From Alphaproteobacteria bacterium (GTDB lineage Bacteria > Pseudomonadota > Alphaproteobacteria > Rs-D84): 64,000 bases of DNA. Shown one piece after another: positions 6,542-13,072 of the stretch (within the stretch, counting starts at the first letter, position 1; each line of letters starts with the position of its first letter). The position numbers and the translations under genes are program-made. The stretch is taken from positions 14,723 through 78,722 of the forward strand of contig JAFZUT010000022.1 of the NCBI GenBank assembly GCA_017618175.1. Direction: 5' to 3'. The notes beneath the pieces are model-generated. The model saw nothing but the letters and a program-made list of their open reading frames with translations, did not search any database and was not told the DNA's origin.

Positions 6542-6586
6542 TGGCGCACCCGGCGCGATTCGAACGCGCAATCCCCGCCTTCGGAG
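6542..6586 (-). pseudogene. 3' half of a split tRNA-Arg(CCG): anticodon loop, 3' anticodon stem, variable loop, T arm, acceptor 3' strand and CCA. This is one island junction.
   Basis: Minus strand reads CTCCGAA GGCGG GGATT GCGCG TTCGAAT CGCGC CGGGTGC GCCA. The sequence upstream of it (…GTCCTGAAA) is not tRNA-like. Confidence 0.85.
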
Positions 6587-6671
6587 TTTCAGGACTTGCA
6601 AGATACACGACCTATACTTTCCCTAGATTTCCGCGGGTTTTGGCAGGTGCTAGTTTTTTGCTAAAACTATC

Positions 6672-6692
6672 TGGCTAACCTATGGCTAACTT
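6672..6692. repeat. Left-arm copy of the 21-bp repeat TGGCTAACCTATGGCTAACTT (two GGCTAAC units)
   Basis: Identical 21-mer at 12893-12913. Probably integrase arm-type binding sites. Confidence 0.6.
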
Positions 6693-6728
6693 TCTGGATA
6701 AAACCAAATAAATTTTTCGCAAGTTTTC

Positions 6729-6805
6729 TGGCGCACCCAGCAGGATTCGAACCTGCAACCTTGTCCTTCGGAGGGACACGCCATATCCAGTTAGGCCATG
6801 GGTGC
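6729..6805 (-). tRNA. Complete island-borne tRNA-Arg (anticodon CCG)
   Basis: Minus strand reads GCACCCA TG GCCT AACTGGATA TGGC G TGTCC CTCCGAA GGACA AGGTT GCAGG TTCGAAT CCTGC TGGGTGC GCCA. All stems pair. By hand alignment there are 17 differences from the split host copy, mostly compensatory changes in stems. Confidence 0.9.
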
Positions 6806-6905
6806 ACTTGCTTGTATTATATATAAAGTTAAATAAAAAGCAAATACCCAATGTAATTTTTTATAAGCAAAGTATAGTCATTTAAGTTTTCGTCGCTATA
6901 CGCCG

Positions 6906-6915
6906 CCCCCCCCCC
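6906..6915. repeat. Poly-C tract (10 C) in island intergenic DNA
   Basis: cgccg-CCCCCCCCCC-ggccg, read directly from the sequence. Confidence 0.9.
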
Positions 6916-6950
6916 CGGCCGCGAATAAATTCGCGTCAGGTTCTTTCCAC

Positions 6951-6979
6951 TTTTAAAAATATATTTTTTATGATATAAT
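6951..6979 (+). promoter_or_regulatory. Extended -10 promoter driving the island structured RNA
   Basis: TGaTATAAT at 6971-6979, with a weak -35 TTTAAA 17 nt upstream. Confidence 0.55.
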
Positions 6980-6985
6980 TCGCAT

Positions 6986-7205
6986 TGAATCCAAGAGATT
7001 GGGTTCAGGGTTATCTCAAACCCGGTATCTTCGGTGCGAAAGCATCGTAATCTGATGTTATCGGTGTTTTCTGCACCGTTATCAGCCCTGACTTATGGTC
7101 GGGGAGTCGTTGGTTATAAAATAGGGGAAACCCGAAAACCACGAAATCATTAAGATACTGATTTGAGAACTCCCTGACCGCTCTTTCTTGGGCGGTTTTT
7201 GTTTT
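6986..7205 (+). ncRNA. Structured RNA of unknown class, either a stand-alone sRNA or a riboswitch-like leader of the 7222 gene
   Basis: Promoter upstream and an intrinsic terminator at 7176-7205. A long-range closing helix pairs TCAGGG/TCTCAAA (7005-7020) with TTTGAGA/CCCTGA (7162-7177). Three GNRA-capped hairpins are present: CCAA-GAGA-TTGG, GGTGC-GAAA-GCATC and GGG-GAAA-CCC. There are also hairpins at 7051-7084 and 7086-7104. Confidence 0.55.
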
Positions 7206-7221
7206 GATATAGAGGCAAACG

Positions 7222-8253
7222 ATGGTAATAAAATCAACATTATTTATAATAACAATAGCTTTTACAGTGTTTCCCATAAAAATTAAGGCGATTGAAAATA
7301 ATACTGTACAATCGAATAAGACAGAACAACAATTTAAGCGACAGTTGGCAAACCAACTCGGTTTATACAATATAAATACCGATGATATAAAAGCACCATC
7401 ATACAATGAATTTCGTTATGCTTTACAAAAACTGACTAATTCGGTTCAATCTTGGTCTACAAACAATCAAGAAAAAGTAATTGAAGCACTGGGAATGTAT
7501 ACCGTCACATTTGGTGTCAACAATATGATTACGTACTGCAAACCTCACTATTCAATGGATAAATTAACCAAAGTATACGATTCTCAAATTATCAGTAAAA
7601 GAGAAACGGCAAAAAATATAATTGTTAAAGCTGGCGGAACAGATTTATTAAAAATATTCGATGATTTATATAACAATAATTCGGCGCTTTTTGCTACCAG
7701 TGTGAATACAGATTATTTGTTGGCAAGAAAGGAATCAGAAATACAGGGTATCGCGAACTTAACAAAAGACCAATATTGCAAATCCTTAGATGATGCGGCG
7801 TATATAGTACCGAGTACTATTGAAAAATTAGCCAAACAAGTGTTAAATCAAGCTAAACAAACAGCAAACCAAACCAAGAGTTCTAATGTTAACAGGTCTA
7901 ATGGTTATATAAATCAACCATACTCGGGCACAACAAAAGTAACCAACAATTATTCACAATACTCTCGTAATTCAATTAGTAATCATGCTTCTGACAGAGC
8001 TATTGGTCGTGCTTTAGGGTGGGCTATTTTTCCTATCCTTATACTAATTTTGGAACTGCTTAGATATATTAAAAATTTATTACGAAATGCTACCAGTAAT
8101 ATGGGCGAACAGGTTAAACAAAAATATATAAAACATAAAAACGAGCAAGAAAAATACCGCAAATATCTGAGAGATTGTGATAAACGTGGCAAAACACCAC
8201 TAAGCTATAAACAATGGAAATTTGCATATGCCGACAAGAAGGTAAAAAAATGA
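7222..8253 (+). CDS. Island cargo protein A: signal peptide, about 260-aa ectodomain, one TM helix, conserved basic C-terminal tail
   Basis: GAGG Shine-Dalgarno. Starts MVIKSTLFIITIAFTVFPIKIKA. TM helix WAIFPILILILELL. Tail KYRKYLRDCDKRGKTPLSYKQWKFAYADKK. AT-rich. Confidence 0.75.
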   Translation: MVIKSTLFIITIAFTVFPIKIKAIENNTVQSNKTEQQFKRQLANQLGLYNINTDDIKAPSYNEFRYALQKLTNSVQSWSTNNQEKVIEALGMYTVTFGVNNMITYCKPHYSMDKLTKVYDSQIISKRETAKNIIVKAGGTDLLKIFDDLYNNNSALFATSVNTDYLLARKESEIQGIANLTKDQYCKSLDDAAYIVPSTIEKLAKQVLNQAKQTANQTKSSNVNRSNGYINQPYSGTTKVTNNYSQYSRNSISNHASDRAIGRALGWAIFPILILILELLRYIKNLLRNATSNMGEQVKQKYIKHKNEQEKYRKYLRDCDKRGKTPLSYKQWKFAYADKKVKK

Positions 8254-8747
8254 AAAAAATTGTAAGTTTAATAGTAGTAATTGTTGGGTGTATCGGGGTT
8301 CAAATTTATTCTAACGCCCAGAATATAAAATCATATGATACTTATGAACGTGATTCTATGCCTGTAGTACCGTATCCACTTAGCGAGCAGCAACATAATG
8401 TGACATTTGACTGGAATAAAGCAAAAGCTCGTTATGCCGCCAGAAACGAAGATTATGTAGGATATTATTTAGCACCCGAAGCTGGGAAATTGAATTTATG
8501 GGATGAATTTATGGATAAAAATTGGCGTTGGGCAACACCAGTTGTGCTTATTTTAATACTGGTCATCGTCAATTTTATACTGATATACATGAGTTATTTA
8601 AATAACAAATATGTTGAGCCATGCCGAAAAAGAACACAGAAACAAATAACGAAATACAGAAAATATTTGATGGATTGTGACAAACGCGGGAAAACACCGC
8701 TAACCTATAAGCAATGGAAATTTGCGTATGTAGATAAAAAAGCATAA
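8250..8747 (+). CDS. Island cargo protein B: signal peptide, short ectodomain, TM helix, and the same C-terminal tail as protein A
   Basis: ATGA overlap with the upstream gene. Starts MKKIVSLIVVIVGCIGVQIYS. TM helix VVLILILVIVNFILIYM. Tail KYRKYLMDCDKRGKTPLTYKQWKFAYVDKK. Confidence 0.75.
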   Translation: MKKIVSLIVVIVGCIGVQIYSNAQNIKSYDTYERDSMPVVPYPLSEQQHNVTFDWNKAKARYAARNEDYVGYYLAPEAGKLNLWDEFMDKNWRWATPVVLILILVIVNFILIYMSYLNNKYVEPCRKRTQKQITKYRKYLMDCDKRGKTPLTYKQWKFAYVDKKA

Positions 8748-8757
8748 AAACGTTCAT

Positions 8758-8800
8758 TTTCCCAAAATTCCCACTATATTGTGTGTGGGAATTTGGGAAA
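8758..8800. terminator. Long perfect hairpin between convergent island genes
   Basis: TTTCCCAAAATTCCCAC (8758-8774) pairs with GTGGGAATTTGGGAAA (8785-8800). Confidence 0.65.
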
Positions 8801-8808
8801 TAGCGACT

Positions 8809-10614
8809 TTATGCTGAGTGTTCGGATAGTATACGCTGGACCTTGGATTTAGAAATACCGGTTTCATCGGCTATCTCGATAATGGTTTTACCAGAATTGC
8901 GAAGTTCTATAATGCGTTTATGGACGGATTCCGCGGGTGTGTCCTGCAATACCCATTTTAAACCGACAGTTTTTCCATATTCGTCTTTAACCGATACCAG
9001 TTTGGCGGCAAATGGCTTTACATCATCGCCACATATTCCCCTGGACTTATGATATTCAACCAATATGTCCGCGCCATCACTAGTTTTATGTGCTGGTGAA
9101 ACTTCCAAGGCGATAGAACTGTTTAAAATGGCTTCTATTGCAGACGAACCTCGCGGGCCACGATTTTTATCTTTTCCCGTGTGATGCAACCACAATATTG
9201 ATTTGCCCTTGCTGCGCATCTTACGCGACCAAGCATTATAACCCGTCCAACTGTCCGCATCATTTTCATGACCGGCGGTGTATAGAGAAAATATATTATC
9301 AATTATTATCAAACTAACGTCGTTCGTAAAAGCCTCTATATGTTTTTGTCCTTCTGTTTTTGCAATATCTGGCATAGTCGCATTATCCTGAAGCCCCGAC
9401 AAAAACAATCTTATGTTCTCACGAATTACGATTTTGCCTTCAGAAGCAAAGCCGTTTATCAATAAATTGAGGCGTGTTTGCATCTCGTTAGCATCCATTT
9501 CACCATCAATATATAATACTTTGCGTGGTTTGTTTGCTCGAAAGTTCAAAAATTCAAATCCGCCAGCAACTGCACAAGCAATAGCCAGTGCCATAAATGT
9601 TTTGCCGGCGCCCCTTTCGGCATATAGCAATGATAAACCGTTTTCCGGAATCATTGGATATAGGACATATTCTGTGGGCGGAAGCTCTTGTCGCAAAAAA
9701 TCAGCAGCATTTATAATCCGATAACCACCGGTTAATGGGCGCATAGTAAGCGCCAGCACAGCCACTATCTCGGATTTAACTTTATCTAGCCCCTGATATA
9801 CCGCAATATCATTAAAATCGGACATGCCATGCGTAGTTATATTCGGAATACATAATTGCGCATTTATGGAATTAGCGGCATTAGTTGCATAATCAACACC
9901 TGTATTTTTGTCCTTTTCCCAATCATTATCGGCAGCGATTACTATACGAGCATTCGGATATTTAGCACGTATGGATTGAGCAACCGGTTCTAAATTACCG
10001 GCATCCATAGCCGCAACTGTATATTCACCCACAGCGGCATAAATACTGGCGGCGGTAGCAAAACCTTCACATATAACAATTGTGTCGCCTGGGGTACCAA
10101 ACGGACAAAAACAACCCTTTTTACGGCCACCAGCCATAAATCTTTTATCGCCATTTGTCGAGATATATTGTAGCGACCACAATTTATCGTCTGTATCATA
10201 CAGTGGAACAACAAGCGAATCTGTTTTAGGATTGTATTTTGCGGGGCCGGCAGATACACATTTGCATTTTAAATATGGGTGTGCATCGGGTGCTGTGCCC
10301 ATCTTGTCGTATTCGCGTTGAGCAGTTTCGGCCACGGTTTGTTGTGCCTGTTGTTGTTCTTTGATAAATAATTCACGTTGTTTGGCGATTTTAATATTCA
10401 AATCGCGTTTTTCGTCCGGGCTTAATTCATATGTGGAATCTGGAAAAGCGTAGAATCTATCGCCTGACACCCAATCTCCAAATGCGTATCCATCTCCGCA
10501 TTGTATTAACCAATACTGATTGTGGTGGCCCCAGCGTGTGAACCCGTCAGGTATAATTTGTCTTGGTAATTCAATTTGGTGTGCGTTTAATGCGTTTATT
10601 AAAAACTGTTCCAT
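8809..10614 (-). CDS. Bifunctional primase-helicase: Toprim primase domain, RepA/AAA_25-like RecA-fold ATPase and C-terminal HTH
   Basis: Toprim motifs VICEGFATAAS and VIAADNDWEKD. Walker A YAERGAGKTF. Walker B-like LIIIDN. C-terminal IIELRNSGKTIIEIADETGISKSKVQRIL. Confidence 0.8.
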   Translation of the reverse strand: MEQFLINALNAHQIELPRQIIPDGFTRWGHHNQYWLIQCGDGYAFGDWVSGDRFYAFPDSTYELSPDEKRDLNIKIAKQRELFIKEQQQAQQTVAETAQREYDKMGTAPDAHPYLKCKCVSAGPAKYNPKTDSLVVPLYDTDDKLWSLQYISTNGDKRFMAGGRKKGCFCPFGTPGDTIVICEGFATAASIYAAVGEYTVAAMDAGNLEPVAQSIRAKYPNARIVIAADNDWEKDKNTGVDYATNAANSINAQLCIPNITTHGMSDFNDIAVYQGLDKVKSEIVAVLALTMRPLTGGYRIINAADFLRQELPPTEYVLYPMIPENGLSLLYAERGAGKTFMALAIACAVAGGFEFLNFRANKPRKVLYIDGEMDANEMQTRLNLLINGFASEGKIVIRENIRLFLSGLQDNATMPDIAKTEGQKHIEAFTNDVSLIIIDNIFSLYTAGHENDADSWTGYNAWSRKMRSKGKSILWLHHTGKDKNRGPRGSSAIEAILNSSIALEVSPAHKTSDGADILVEYHKSRGICGDDVKPFAAKLVSVKDEYGKTVGLKWVLQDTPAESVHKRIIELRNSGKTIIEIADETGISKSKVQRILSEHSA

Positions 10615-10826
10615 TATTGCCCCCTTTGGTCTGAATTAACTTGATTGCGTTTTTGTTGGTCCAAGTACGCCATAACTTCATCACAGTCGTATAAAACCCG
10701 CCCGCCAATTCGGGTCCATGGTATAGGGCAAATTTTACTGGTGCGCCACCGTTCAATGGTATTGCGTTTTATGTGTAACAAGTCGGCCAATTCGCCGGTT
10801 GTTAAATAACGATTTGCAAAAATCAT
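10614..10826 (-). CDS. AlpA/excisionase-family HTH protein (70 aa)
   Basis: LTTGELADLLHIKRNTIERWRTS...GGRVLYDCDEVMAYL matches the excisionase-type HTH pattern. It sits directly upstream of the primase gene. Confidence 0.7.
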   Translation of the reverse strand: MIFANRYLTTGELADLLHIKRNTIERWRTSKICPIPWTRIGGRVLYDCDEVMAYLDQQKRNQVNSDQRGQ

Positions 10827-10903
10827 GTATTCTCCTTTTGTGTTAATTTTACAATTTAACTGTGGCCACCGTTGACATTGTTAAAAGCAATGTAAATCGC
10901 TAT

Positions 10904-10937
10904 TAAAAAAATACGACCGCTAAGAATCGTATTTTTG
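10904..10937 (-). terminator. Terminator after the int-orf212 unit
   Basis: AATACGA/TCGTATT hairpin followed by a 7-T run on the minus strand. Confidence 0.55.
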
Positions 10938-10996
10938 TAACTTGTTATTTTTACTAGACAAATATAAAATTATATACGAATTGTATATGAACCAGA

Positions 10997-11635
10997 TTAG
11001 ATTCTACGATTCGCGTTGCGAAACTTTTCAAATATTTTTGGAAATCTCATGATTATTTGCTGTTTCGTGGCATTAGGTTGGTATGCGCCTTTGCGAAATC
11101 CAGTATACCAGGTCGTAACAGTATTAAATGTTGGAATCTGTATCTTAAATTCTGGCAATACGTCTTTAAGCAAATTATATAACGATTTGGCCGGTATATG
11201 GTTGTAGGTTTTATAGCAATAAAAAGCAATATCGTGTGCCGGGCTATCACGCCTGACAATAGAGTTTGATTCTTTTGGTAATGGTGGAAATGCTTCACGC
11301 AATTTATCGGCCAACAAACAAACGCCGTAATAATATTGACCGCACATAGCGATAACCATATCATCTGGTACGTGCATCTCCATGTCCGGGGCAAAACTCG
11401 TTATTTCCGCATCTTCTATTTTTCCGGTTTTATCATTTTCTACGCTAGCAACCGCTATAATTTCATTATTGTTTGGTAAAAACTCTTCAAAATCAGGTGT
11501 CAGATATCCGTACAACAACGTTTCGGATTTTGACAATAATTCATCGTTTTCTAGGATGAGTTGCTTGGACGGTTTTATATTCCTAAACGCTATCCAATAC
11601 AACGACTCTAACAGGTCGTAATATTCTTTTTTCAT
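10997..11635 (-). CDS. Island hypothetical protein (212 aa), coupled to the integrase gene
   Basis: 4-nt ATGA overlap with the integrase stop codon. No motif recognised. Confidence 0.6.
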   Translation of the reverse strand: MKKEYYDLLESLYWIAFRNIKPSKQLILENDELLSKSETLLYGYLTPDFEEFLPNNNEIIAVASVENDKTGKIEDAEITSFAPDMEMHVPDDMVIAMCGQYYYGVCLLADKLREAFPPLPKESNSIVRRDSPAHDIAFYCYKTYNHIPAKSLYNLLKDVLPEFKIQIPTFNTVTTWYTGFRKGAYQPNATKQQIIMRFPKIFEKFRNANRRI

Positions 11636-12840
11636 TGTGCTACTCCTGTGTTTGGTGGGGTTATTTTTGCGGCGGCAACCATCTGGTCTGCGGCCCGTTG
11701 AATACTTTGCCGCACCGGGTCTTCGGTAAGGCGTGCGTAAATTGGTATTACGGCCGGCGACTTATCGCCCAATGCTTTGCCGATAATCTCGTTTGAAGAG
11801 CCTGTGATTGCTTGATAACTGGCAAATGTGCGCCGCAAATCATGCAAGCGCAAATCGGTTAATCCGGCGCGTTCTTTCATTGTGCGCCACGCGACTTGCG
11901 GGTTTTCAAGATGCCCACTGCGTGATTGTTTGCTTGGGAATAACCAAGTGCTAGTTTTGAAAGTTTCCATTTCGTGTAATAAATCTATGGCCTGGGTGGA
12001 TAATGGTACGATTTGTGGTTCACCATTTTTTGTTGTTTTTATATATGCGACCCTGCGTTCAAAATTTATGTCCGACCATTGCAGAGCTTGGATATTGCGC
12101 CTGCGTTGGCCCATAAAAAGGCTTAATAGTATGAAATTACGCGATGCCGCATTTGGAATTTTTGCGACTTCTTGGAAAAACACGCTCAATTCGTCGGGTT
12201 GTAAAAATCTGTCGCGTTTATTTTCAGGAAACAGTTTTATTCGCGCGGCGGGATTTGTGCACGGGAATCCCCAATCTATGGCTTTGTTGAACATTTGTCG
12301 CATAAGTTTTAATCCGCGGTTAGCCGAATAAACGCTTTTTGTGCGTCGCCATATTTCGTTGTGCATGCGTTCCATGTCGGCACGTGTCAATGTCAACATT
12401 GTTGCCCTTTTTATAGTGTCCGGAACATAAAGACGCATAGATATTTTATCCATTTTCTGCGATTCCGCTTTTTTTCGCATGACAGAATAGTCAGGGAAAT
12501 AGTATTGGTCGAAAAATTCCTGCACGGTTATGGAATCACGAATCTTGCGTTTGGCATCGTTAGGATTTTCGCCACGGTTGGTTTGCTCTATTAGTTCGGC
12601 CATACGCTTCCGCGCGTTTTTTAATGACGTATTATTGGCGTCGCCGATTTTATGAAATATTGTGCGATTGCCAACCTTTTTGAGCAAATAATAAATCTTG
12701 TTGCTTGAACTGACACGCAACACAAGGTTTTTGATTGTCGTGTCGTAATATACCAACCGTTGTCCGGGTTGCGCATACGGTAATGATTCTACGGTGGCTT
12801 CGGTGAAATTAAATCTGCGTTCTTTTGTTGTTGTAGGCAT
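11632..12840 (-). CDS. int: Tyrosine recombinase / phage-type integrase with an N-terminal arm-binding domain
   Basis: R...HDLRRTFAS...IPIYARL catalytic pattern. Start chosen at MPTTTKERRF because it has an AAGGGGA Shine-Dalgarno. The longer ORF (to 12870) would overlap the GGCTAAC repeats. Confidence 0.85.
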   Translation of the reverse strand: MPTTTKERRFNFTEATVESLPYAQPGQRLVYYDTTIKNLVLRVSSSNKIYYLLKKVGNRTIFHKIGDANNTSLKNARKRMAELIEQTNRGENPNDAKRKIRDSITVQEFFDQYYFPDYSVMRKKAESQKMDKISMRLYVPDTIKRATMLTLTRADMERMHNEIWRRTKSVYSANRGLKLMRQMFNKAIDWGFPCTNPAARIKLFPENKRDRFLQPDELSVFFQEVAKIPNAASRNFILLSLFMGQRRRNIQALQWSDINFERRVAYIKTTKNGEPQIVPLSTQAIDLLHEMETFKTSTWLFPSKQSRSGHLENPQVAWRTMKERAGLTDLRLHDLRRTFASYQAITGSSNEIIGKALGDKSPAVIPIYARLTEDPVRQSIQRAADQMVAAAKITPPNTGVAQ

Positions 12841-12860
12841 CGTTTTTCCCCTTTGGGTCT

Positions 12861-12913
12861 GGCTAACCATTCTGGCTAACCGGACGCGTGGGTGGCTAAC
12901 CTATGGCTAACTT
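12861..12913. repeat. Right-arm cluster of four GGCTAAC units, including the 21-bp repeat copy at 12893-12913
   Basis: GGCTAAC at 12861, 12874, 12894 and 12905, directly upstream of int. Confidence 0.6.
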
Positions 12914-13033
12914 ATTTAATAAATTTCCCGCCTACCGCATAAAGCATTTTACAACGGTAAAGCCGTAAAGCTAGGGAAAAATATAAAGTTTTATAAATCC
13001 TACGAAAGCCGCAGAAAACAACGAGTTTTTAAA

Positions 13034-13072
13034 TTCGGAGGGCGATGCTCTATCCAGTTAAGCCACGGGTGC
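13034..13072 (-). pseudogene. 5' half of the split tRNA-Arg(CCG): acceptor 5' strand, D arm, 5' anticodon stem and anticodon loop. This is the other island junction.
   Basis: Minus strand reads GCACCCG TG GCTT AACTGGATA GAGC A TCGCC CTCCGAA, followed by non-tRNA sequence (TTTAAAAACTCG...). Confidence 0.85.

Follow-up and report, generated by a model that had tools for sequence, protein, structure and literature searches.

What kind of RNA is encoded immediately ahead of the cargo genes of an integrative island in a gut alphaproteobacterium, and does it belong to that island? The locus lies in a 64,000-nucleotide (nt) stretch of contig JAFZUT010000022.1 (assembly GCA_017618175.1, positions 14,723 to 78,722) from a member of the order Rs-D84. 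This whole stretch is called the window here, and coordinates are window positions on the plus strand unless stated otherwise. A sequence-only reading had singled out positions 6986-7205 as a structured RNA of unknown class, an element of the island that could be a riboswitch-like attenuator or an independent small RNA (sRNA). We find strong support for a real structured RNA at the flagged positions, one of many copies of a leader family that is order-wide and undescribed, not an island-specific element. The defining feature of this leader is a second, mutually exclusive fold, which the earlier reading had missed, and the leader probably controls whether the genes downstream of it are transcribed.

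To establish the limits of the RNA, we examined the window copy itself. A sigma-70 promoter at 6952-6979, with the -35 box TTTAAA, a 16-nt spacer, and the extended -10 box TGaTATAAT, scores 10 of 12 consensus matches plus the TG extension and precedes a predicted start at a conserved G, position 6987. The resulting leader RNA of 219 nt (6987-7205) ends at an intrinsic terminator (7176-7205), whose stem pairs 7176-7183 with 7190-7197 and whose U-tract covers 7196-7205; positions 7176-7197 read GACCGCTC-TTTCTT-GGGCGGTT, and TTTGTTTT comes next. The minimum free energy (MFE) of 6986-7205 is -91.1 kcal/mol, compared with -57.9 +/- 4.1 for dinucleotide shuffles (z = -8.07), and none of 200 shuffles folds as well. 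The extended -10 promoter, the terminator, and a span of about 220 nt were all found where the sequence-only reading had put them, as were the Shine-Dalgarno sequence AGAGG (7211-7215) and the ATG of the first cargo gene at 7222, which together occupy 7211-7224. In the window copy, 16 nt separate this start codon from the end of the covariance model described below.

The same reading had failed to match the RNA to the named riboswitch classes and had suggested an Rfam search as a check. In Rfam 15, the window copy has no match at the gathering threshold, and the matches at E <= 10 are chance-level sRNAs; known RNA families were rejected for this copy. No Rfam riboswitch family with a curated aptamer was matched, at the gathering threshold or at E <= 10, in agreement with the earlier view.

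Homologues, gathered by BLASTN, are present as paralogues in the source genome (0.89 Mb) and also occur in the majority of Candidatus Enterousia genomes, the genus concerned. A first alignment of 22 copies, made with MAFFT, displays a conserved core and visibly compensated helices, and RNAalifold assigns it 61 pairs, 30 of them with compensatory change. Genome scans with R1, a covariance model built for the leader family, place the leader in 96 of 101 Candidatus Enterousia genomes, with copy numbers from 1 to 22 or more. Across the order Rs-D84, they recover it from 183 of 201 genomes, representing 17 of 23 genera. A typical genome of the family carries about ten copies. The source genome has about 11, mostly outside islands, and the assignment of the RNA to the island as one of its elements does not survive this count. 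Candidatus Enterousia and the order Rs-D84 are genome-reduced Alphaproteobacteria of animal guts (PMC12306168).

Covariation supports an extensive structure, which we call fold A. An alignment of 103 copies, A2, was fitted to fold A, and the columns of the alternative fold B lie in its well-aligned conserved blocks. Over A2, 96.4% of cells are paired, and compensatory double changes occur in 53 of 61 pairs, so that collecting homologues and checking them for covariation, as had been suggested, upholds the structure. None of 500 shuffles reaches these values and slid controls are at most 49% paired; the shuffle controls leave phylogenetic relatedness in, and it is the slid controls, together with the number of distinct pair types, that argue strongly for real structure.

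Fold A begins with a 5'-terminal hairpin, P0 (6987-7006, GAAUCCAA-GAGA-UUGGGUUC), with compensatory changes at each of its 8 pairs and 98.6% of cells paired. Segment a (AGGG, 7007-7010) then pairs with 7172-7175 to form P1a, and the helix continues through P1b (7014-7019 with 7163-7168) and P1c (7023-7031 with 7152-7160). In P1a, columns 60:458 hold G-C in 79-81 copies and A-U in another 7. The P1b and P1c strands are hypervariable across copies yet never lose their complementarity: most positions show four pair types, compensatory changes occur in 15 of 15 pairs, and 97-99.7% of cells are paired. The long-range closing helix drawn from the window sequence is real, then, supported by covariation in P1a and P1b and extended by P1c.

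At least five hairpins had been placed inside this helix; we find four, namely P2, P3, P4, and P5 with its tip P5b. P2 (7032-7047) is CGGUGC-GAAA-GCAUCG, with 98.6% of cells paired and double changes in 5 of 6 pairs, and P3 (7062-7078) is CGGUG-UUUUCUG-CACCG, with a U-rich loop, 92% of cells paired, and double changes in 5 of 5 pairs. A single long P2/P3 helix, joining the GAAA loop with the U-rich loop, was also considered; it is 78.5% paired in the 103 copies against 78.0% in shuffles, and the two-hairpin form was retained. P4 pairs segment b (GCCCUGAC, 7085-7092) with segment c (GUCGGGGA, 7098-7105) across a loop of variable length, with 95% of cells paired and double changes in 5 of 8 pairs. 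The P5 arm (7107-7144), which is common to both folds, has the stem UCGUUGG/CCACGA, the tip hairpin P5b (GGG-GAAA-CCC, 7124-7133), and a conserved asymmetric internal loop, UUAUAAAAUA (7114-7123) opposite GAAAA (7134-7138), for which the family consensus is UAUA(A/C)AA(U/C)A opposite GAAA. The terminator helix is 92.9% paired across the family.

The hairpin with the GAGA loop, thought to lie within the closing helix, is P0 and sits outside it at the 5' end. All three of the GNRA loops described earlier are present in the window copy; in the family they are conserved only in part and are not a defining feature. GNRA-type loops cap P0 in at least 77 of the 103 copies, P2 (as GAAA) in 43, and P5b in 42; elsewhere the loops are UUCG-like or absent.

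Coding explanations for parts of the leader were rejected. An open reading frame (ORF) of 131 aa on the minus strand (7011-7406, TTG start) overlaps both the leader RNA and a cargo gene, is unconserved in other copies, and is considered spurious. An ATG in the P4 loop has no Shine-Dalgarno sequence and is unconserved in presence and frame, which speaks against a leader peptide, and the family alignment holds no conserved ORF inside the leader, with element lengths spread evenly across the classes modulo 3.

A second fold, exclusive of fold A, is supported by covariation in the same copies. In this fold B, segment c, here extending over 7098-7106 (GUCGGGGAG), pairs with segment d (7170-7178, CUCCCUGAC), with 98.2% of cells paired, and closes a three-way junction like that of sRNA-Xcc1. 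Segment d can thus pair with a, in fold A through 7172-7175, or with c in fold B, and it ends in GAC (7176-7178), three nucleotides that also serve as the base of the terminator stem. At pair 316:453, 60 copies have AU, 20 GU, 15 UA, and 2 GC, and in 29 sequences column 316 is unpaired with its own fold-A partner. Segments b, c, and d change in concert as a triple, for example as C-G-C, U-A-U, and G-C-G, and one paralogue in the source genome, C10:7098-7255, has replaced all three coherently (b=CUCCACC, c=GGUUGGAGG, d=CCUCCAACC).

Fold B includes two further hairpins. P6 (7144-7164) pairs AAAUCA at 7144-7149 with UGAUUU at 7159-7164, has 95% of cells paired and double changes in 5 of 6 pairs, and contains the 3' strand of P1c in its loop. 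Pa pairs 7008-7012 with 7019-7023, with double changes in 5 of 5 pairs and 94.3% of cells paired, a result reached by none of 500 shuffles. When 7098-7178 is folded in isolation, the MFE structure is the three-way junction (-26 kcal/mol, z = -3.0). The C10 paralogue just mentioned is a short variant of the leader, 158 nt long with a reduced P5, and precedes a 75-aa gene with an XRE-type helix-turn-helix (HTH).

The three-way junction links the leader to a described RNA. sRNA-Xcc1 (RF02221) is a discrete 88-nt RNA from a Xanthomonas campestris integron cassette, seen by Northern blot and end mapping (PMC2996969), and Xanthomonas integron cassettes carry it ahead of symE (bioRxiv 10.1101/2025.06.18.660453). 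The gathering cutoff of RF02221 is 53 bits, and the copies of the leader family tested fall short of it. Six of 20 other leader copies match the model from end to end, scoring 30-40 bits; within the source genome, 3 of 11 copies score 31-40 bits (31 bits for the short C10 variant); paralogues and orthologues top out at 40.4 bits; and the window copy has no match at E <= 10. A positive control, the element of phage Aaphi23, scores 86.1 bits.

Where the model does align, the 3' 80-90 nt of the leader follow it along all 87 positions, and cmscan equates the outer helix of RF02221 with c:d, hairpin 1 with P5, and hairpin 2 with P6. The sRNA-Xcc1 closing helix, GUCGGG.../...CCCGAC, corresponds to c:d, and 7098-7178 forms the same kind of junction, a closing helix of 9 base pairs (bp) enclosing two hairpins. 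In hairpin 1, the loop AUACAAUA opposite GAA has its counterpart in P5, where the window has A for the C of the model; in wider terms, the loop (U)AUA(C/A)AAUA opposite GAA(A), with its tetraloop tip, equals P5 of the leader. Judged from these alignments, the 3' module of the leader is a distant relative of sRNA-Xcc1 and not a member by the Rfam criterion. The description of the RNA as of unknown class holds in that the window copy matches no Rfam family, and gives way in that its 3' 80-90 nt are distantly related to sRNA-Xcc1, below threshold.

The two RNAs also differ. sRNA-Xcc1 is a stand-alone transcript of ~88 nt described as a trans-acting sRNA, whereas the Enterousia RNA is 2.5 times longer, has a separate intrinsic terminator behind the junction, and is present at ~10 copies per genome. 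Its predicted promoter-to-terminator span is 219 nt, and at the predicted start begins a 5' module of ~110 nt (P0, a, the P1 strands, P2, P3, and b) that can unfold the Xcc1-like junction. On the side of likeness, Xcc1 elements, too, occupy a leader position before accessory genes: RF02221 members occur in temperate phages, plasmids, and islands, and true members lie just upstream of same-strand accessory genes on mobile elements. In phage Aaphi23, the element (NC_004827.1 16602-16686) is located between the Q-like antiterminator gene q and ant, 38 nt ahead of the ant start codon. It is unannotated in the record and is preceded by a promoter-like site, TTGACA-18-TAGTAT.

Whether the structure acts as RNA or as DNA can be judged from the alignment. 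Among paired cells of the 103 copies, there are 647 G-U or U-G pairs and 52 A-C or C-A pairs, so the folded molecule is the sense strand, as RNA. This 12-fold excess bears on the proposal that the leaders are a DNA-level mobile repeat, similar to miniature inverted-repeat transposable elements, or a recombination site that folds as a single strand and spreads together with gene cassettes, the structure acting in DNA. The leaders are indeed multicopy and tied to accessory genes and islands, and their hypervariable complementary arms recall integron attC sites. A transfer RNA (tRNA) gene is found within 400 nt upstream of 11 of 96 copies, compared with ~2% expected by chance in a 0.9-Mb genome with ~40 tRNA genes, so that leaders are enriched at tRNA-linked variable spots. 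Apart from the G-U excess, a function in DNA is contradicted by a promoter set to begin transcription at the first conserved base, by the conservation of an intrinsic terminator with its U-tract, and by the lack of terminal inverted repeats at the element ends in the alignments. Orientation and distance to the start codon are strict, and with every one of the 103 copies co-oriented with the gene, the copies do not behave as insertions independent of genes. We regard a DNA-level element as highly improbable.

The arrangement of the leader relative to genes is uniform. In 89 of 100 copies, a -10 box of the form TANNNT ends 6-7 nt ahead of the first, conserved G of the RNA, and 91 of 103 retain a terminator U-tract, counted as at least 5 U within 8 nt. 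A same-strand ORF lies downstream of all 103 copies, starting within 35 nt past the terminator in 92 of them, and the median gap of 18 nt leaves no space for another promoter. The window follows this pattern, bearing out the placement of the RNA directly upstream of two cargo genes, the first encoding 343 aa (7222-8253) and the second 177 aa (8214-8747), with its likely start at an internal ATG near 8250. No promoter-like site was found on the plus strand between 7205 and 8553, which implies that the cargo genes in the window are transcribed only by read-through.

These observations weigh on the idea that the product is a trans-acting sRNA, either the terminated 219-nt RNA or an Xcc1-like 3' product of ~90 nt cleaved from the P1 duplex, with downstream expression being incidental. 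The leader has its own promoter and terminator, and its relative sRNA-Xcc1, seen as a discrete RNA of 88 nt (PMC2996969), has been called trans-acting. An RNA acting in trans does not account for the same-strand ORF directly behind every copy with no space for a separate promoter. The ~10 paralogues per genome, with differing variable helices and a constant core, fit cis control better, and the variable strands have no complementary genome targets beyond chance. When the variable P1 strands were considered as trans-target addresses, a blastn-short search against the whole genome returned chance matches and conserved parts of paralogues, and this candidate was rejected. We consider a trans-acting sRNA quite unlikely. 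Of the two options left by the sequence-only reading, then, the independent sRNA is disfavored by the ubiquity and proximity of the downstream ORF and by the lack of a promoter-like site before the window cargo, and the riboswitch-like attenuator is the one that the evidence favors.

The genes controlled by the leaders, if control is their role, are diverse. Those that follow the leaders are mutually unrelated and encode secreted fibres, lipoproteins, glycosyltransferases, and restriction or methylase enzymes, and by a simple heuristic 54 of 101 downstream proteins have signal-peptide-like N termini. Among 87 downstream proteins compared with Pfam, most have no family; those that do include GT2 (4), OMP beta-barrel (3), Flg_new (3), Mrr (2), and DNA methylases (2), with single cases of GT8, UvrD plus PLD, GmrSD, acyltransferase 3, RgpF, superinfection immunity, and ankyrin. 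No common ligand-linked pathway emerges from these 87 proteins. In the source genome, 7 of the 11 leaders stand before paralogues of a single secreted family, whose N-terminal motif is T(I/V)TTQDYVD...ATKQxKI (leaders at C2:21394, C16:5867, C9:55354, C7:16322, C17:18380, C16:11012, and C9:20216). Leaders that are 80-88% identical to the window copy precede genes unlike the window cargo, and at the loci examined no homologues of the window cargo proteins lie behind related leaders. The presence of such similar leaders before unrelated genes marks the leader as a portable module.

Taken together, we favor, with somewhat better than even confidence, a reading in which the element is a cis-acting leader RNA that works as a default-off transcription attenuator. 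RNA polymerase would initiate at about G6987 from the promoter at 6952-6979, and the nascent RNA would adopt one of the two exclusive folds. In fold A, the ground state, 7007-7031 would zip onto 7152-7175 (P1a, P1b, and P1c) and 7085-7092 would pair with 7098-7105 (P4), leaving 7176-7197 available for the full terminator hairpin; at the U-tract, the polymerase would let go of the 219-nt transcript, with the cargo genes (7222-8747) staying silent. In fold B, 7098-7106 would pair with 7170-7178 and, with P5 and P6, complete the three-way junction of the sRNA-Xcc1 type, while Pa would fold 7008-7012 onto 7019-7023. This would take three basal pairs from the terminator and set a rigid junction at the foot of its stem, and we infer that read-through into the cargo genes would follow. 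An effector, either a small ligand or a protein, may shift the balance to fold B, and the likeliest site for it would be the conserved asymmetric loop of P5 (UAUAAAAUA opposite GAAAA), a candidate suggested by its conservation.

Calculated energies agree with the default state in this proposal. In 93 of 97 copies, fold A is the more stable of the two, with a mean advantage of 15 kcal/mol; the advantage is already 10-13 kcal/mol when the 3' arm of the terminator has yet to be made, so off is the default. When the three basal pairs are removed, the terminator hairpin weakens from a mean of -11.7 to -5.3 kcal/mol (-12.4 to -6.1 in the window copy), and 3 nt come to separate its stem from the U-tract. 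The features expected of an attenuator are present: an intrinsic terminator stands between promoter and ORF, as the U-tracts and the median ORF distance given above attest, and a covarying alternative pairing excludes the terminator fold through the 3-nt overlap.

Several points weigh against a regulated attenuator. The overlap between fold B and the terminator is 3 nt only and a GC-rich stem of 5 bp survives, so fold B on its own may antiterminate incompletely. It is also 10-15 kcal/mol less stable than fold A, and the downstream genes, having no metabolic theme, do not allow a ligand to be guessed. The source genome, which is 96% complete, lacks GGDEF and RelA/SpoT domains and has a single NusG, which removes the obvious candidate signals and factors. 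On this ground, we rejected cyclic di-GMP and (p)ppGpp as ligands and a specialized NusG paralogue of the RfaH, LoaP, or UpxY type as antitermination factor. The alternative pairings could serve folding or processing instead.

Some of these points lend themselves to a rival view, that the leader is a constitutive expression cassette in which a promoter and a very stable 5' structure protect the mRNA and insulate the gene, and a leaky terminator yields low, fixed expression. Here c:d, P6, and Pa would be cotranscriptional folding intermediates or relics of an Xcc1-like ancestor. The portability of the module, with leaders of 80-88% identity before unrelated genes, the strong preference for fold A, the short overlap of fold B with the terminator, and the difficulty of naming an effector would all fit. 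A relic would decay, however, and the helices of fold B are under continuing selection, as the three pair types at 316:453, the b-c-d triple, Pa, and P6 attest. Retention of a good U-tract terminator in 91 of 103 copies would likewise be costly if gating were unwanted. We judge a constitutive cassette unlikely, and a default-off attenuator remains our preferred reading.

An attenuator or riboswitch-like leader is a known kind of mechanism; what is new here is the architecture, the distribution, and the gene set. In the pbuE adenine ON-switch, a ligand-stabilized P1 withholds the 5' arm of the terminator. Terminator/antiterminator riboswitches such as pbuE resemble the Enterousia leader in being promoter proximal, with an intrinsic terminator directly before the ORF, in having two exclusive pairings that share a strand with the terminator, and in being off by default. 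They differ in that the Enterousia leader matches no Rfam riboswitch or aptamer, has a terminator overlap of just 3 nt, and precedes functionally unrelated genes and not those of one pathway. The Brt leaders of Bartonella, another host-associated alphaproteobacterium, are genus-specific structured RNAs of ~200 nt, each located upstream of a trp regulator gene. Like the Enterousia leaders, they are multicopy and lineage restricted and have their own promoter and terminator; the likeness is one of description only, and all Brt leaders precede homologous genes, whereas the Enterousia leaders precede unrelated ones. The putL and putR RNAs of HK022 and the EAR element of Bacillus are cis-acting processive antiterminators, compact, multihairpin, and promoter proximal, ahead of terminators and cargo or late genes. 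They, too, occur on mobile elements, and by their description alone they may be hypothetical parallels to the Enterousia leader.

The sharing of the junction between these leaders and sRNA-Xcc1 raises a wider proposal, which we offer tentatively and think possible but doubtful: that the Xcc1-type junction is the sensor domain of widespread, unrecognized cis regulators on mobile DNA, in integron cassettes, temperate phages, and islands across the Proteobacteria. If this were true, the junction would bind a ligand, a protein, or RNA polymerase itself, sRNA-Xcc1 would count as a leader and not as a trans-acting sRNA, and the Enterousia leader would be the first form with a legible expression platform, consisting of the masking 5' module and the terminator. 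One signal would then gate the accessory genome, including surface fibres, envelope modification, restriction, and defense, of a whole order of gut bacteria. The leader reading also offers a testable function for sRNA-Xcc1, which has been known since 2010 from integrons and phages.

Within Rs-D84 itself, these gut and rumen Alphaproteobacteria with ~0.9-Mb genomes have almost no classical regulators, yet the same 220-nt RNA stands before ~ten unrelated accessory genes in each genome. Were the gate regulated, it would be a main control point of the variable surface and defense repertoire, and it would represent a new orphan riboswitch-like class, one very rich in covariation data. The family was missed by Rfam 15 and merits a curated model.

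The island in which the window copy is found spans 6542-13072, with the leader at one end. On its minus strand are a complete tRNA-Arg(CCG) (6729-6805), a primase-helicase with a C-terminal HTH (8809-10614), an HTH_17/AlpA-like protein (10614-10826), a 212-aa ORF with no assigned family (10997-11635), and a tyrosine integrase (11632-12870). Between the tRNA-Arg gene and the leader promoter, a run of 11 C in a GC-rich stretch (6906-6916) is followed by the palindrome CGCGAATAAATTCGCG at 6920-6935; the region 6906-6935 could be a slippage-prone tract or a hairpin. Both cargo proteins have an N-terminal signal or anchor sequence, and no Pfam or PHROG family was found for either. They have in common a C-terminal tail of ~30 aa with ~90% identity (...KYLRDCDKRGKTPLSYKQWKFAYADKK), encoded at approximately 8152-8241 and 8652-8741, and are otherwise unrelated.

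Elsewhere, a sub-threshold match to a T-box leader was seen in another Enterousia genome, at L036:2932-3195 (39.5 bits, cutoff 93, E = 2.8e-5); a T-box leader would be unusual in Alphaproteobacteria. In the source genome, a weaker leader copy on the minus strand (C23:16556-16786, 74 bits) is followed only by a short ORF of ~30 aa to the stop codon, which begins MEKIDLVYMWVDGNDKKW, resembles the start of a Stealth-type capsule phosphotransferase, and is probably a decayed cargo gene.

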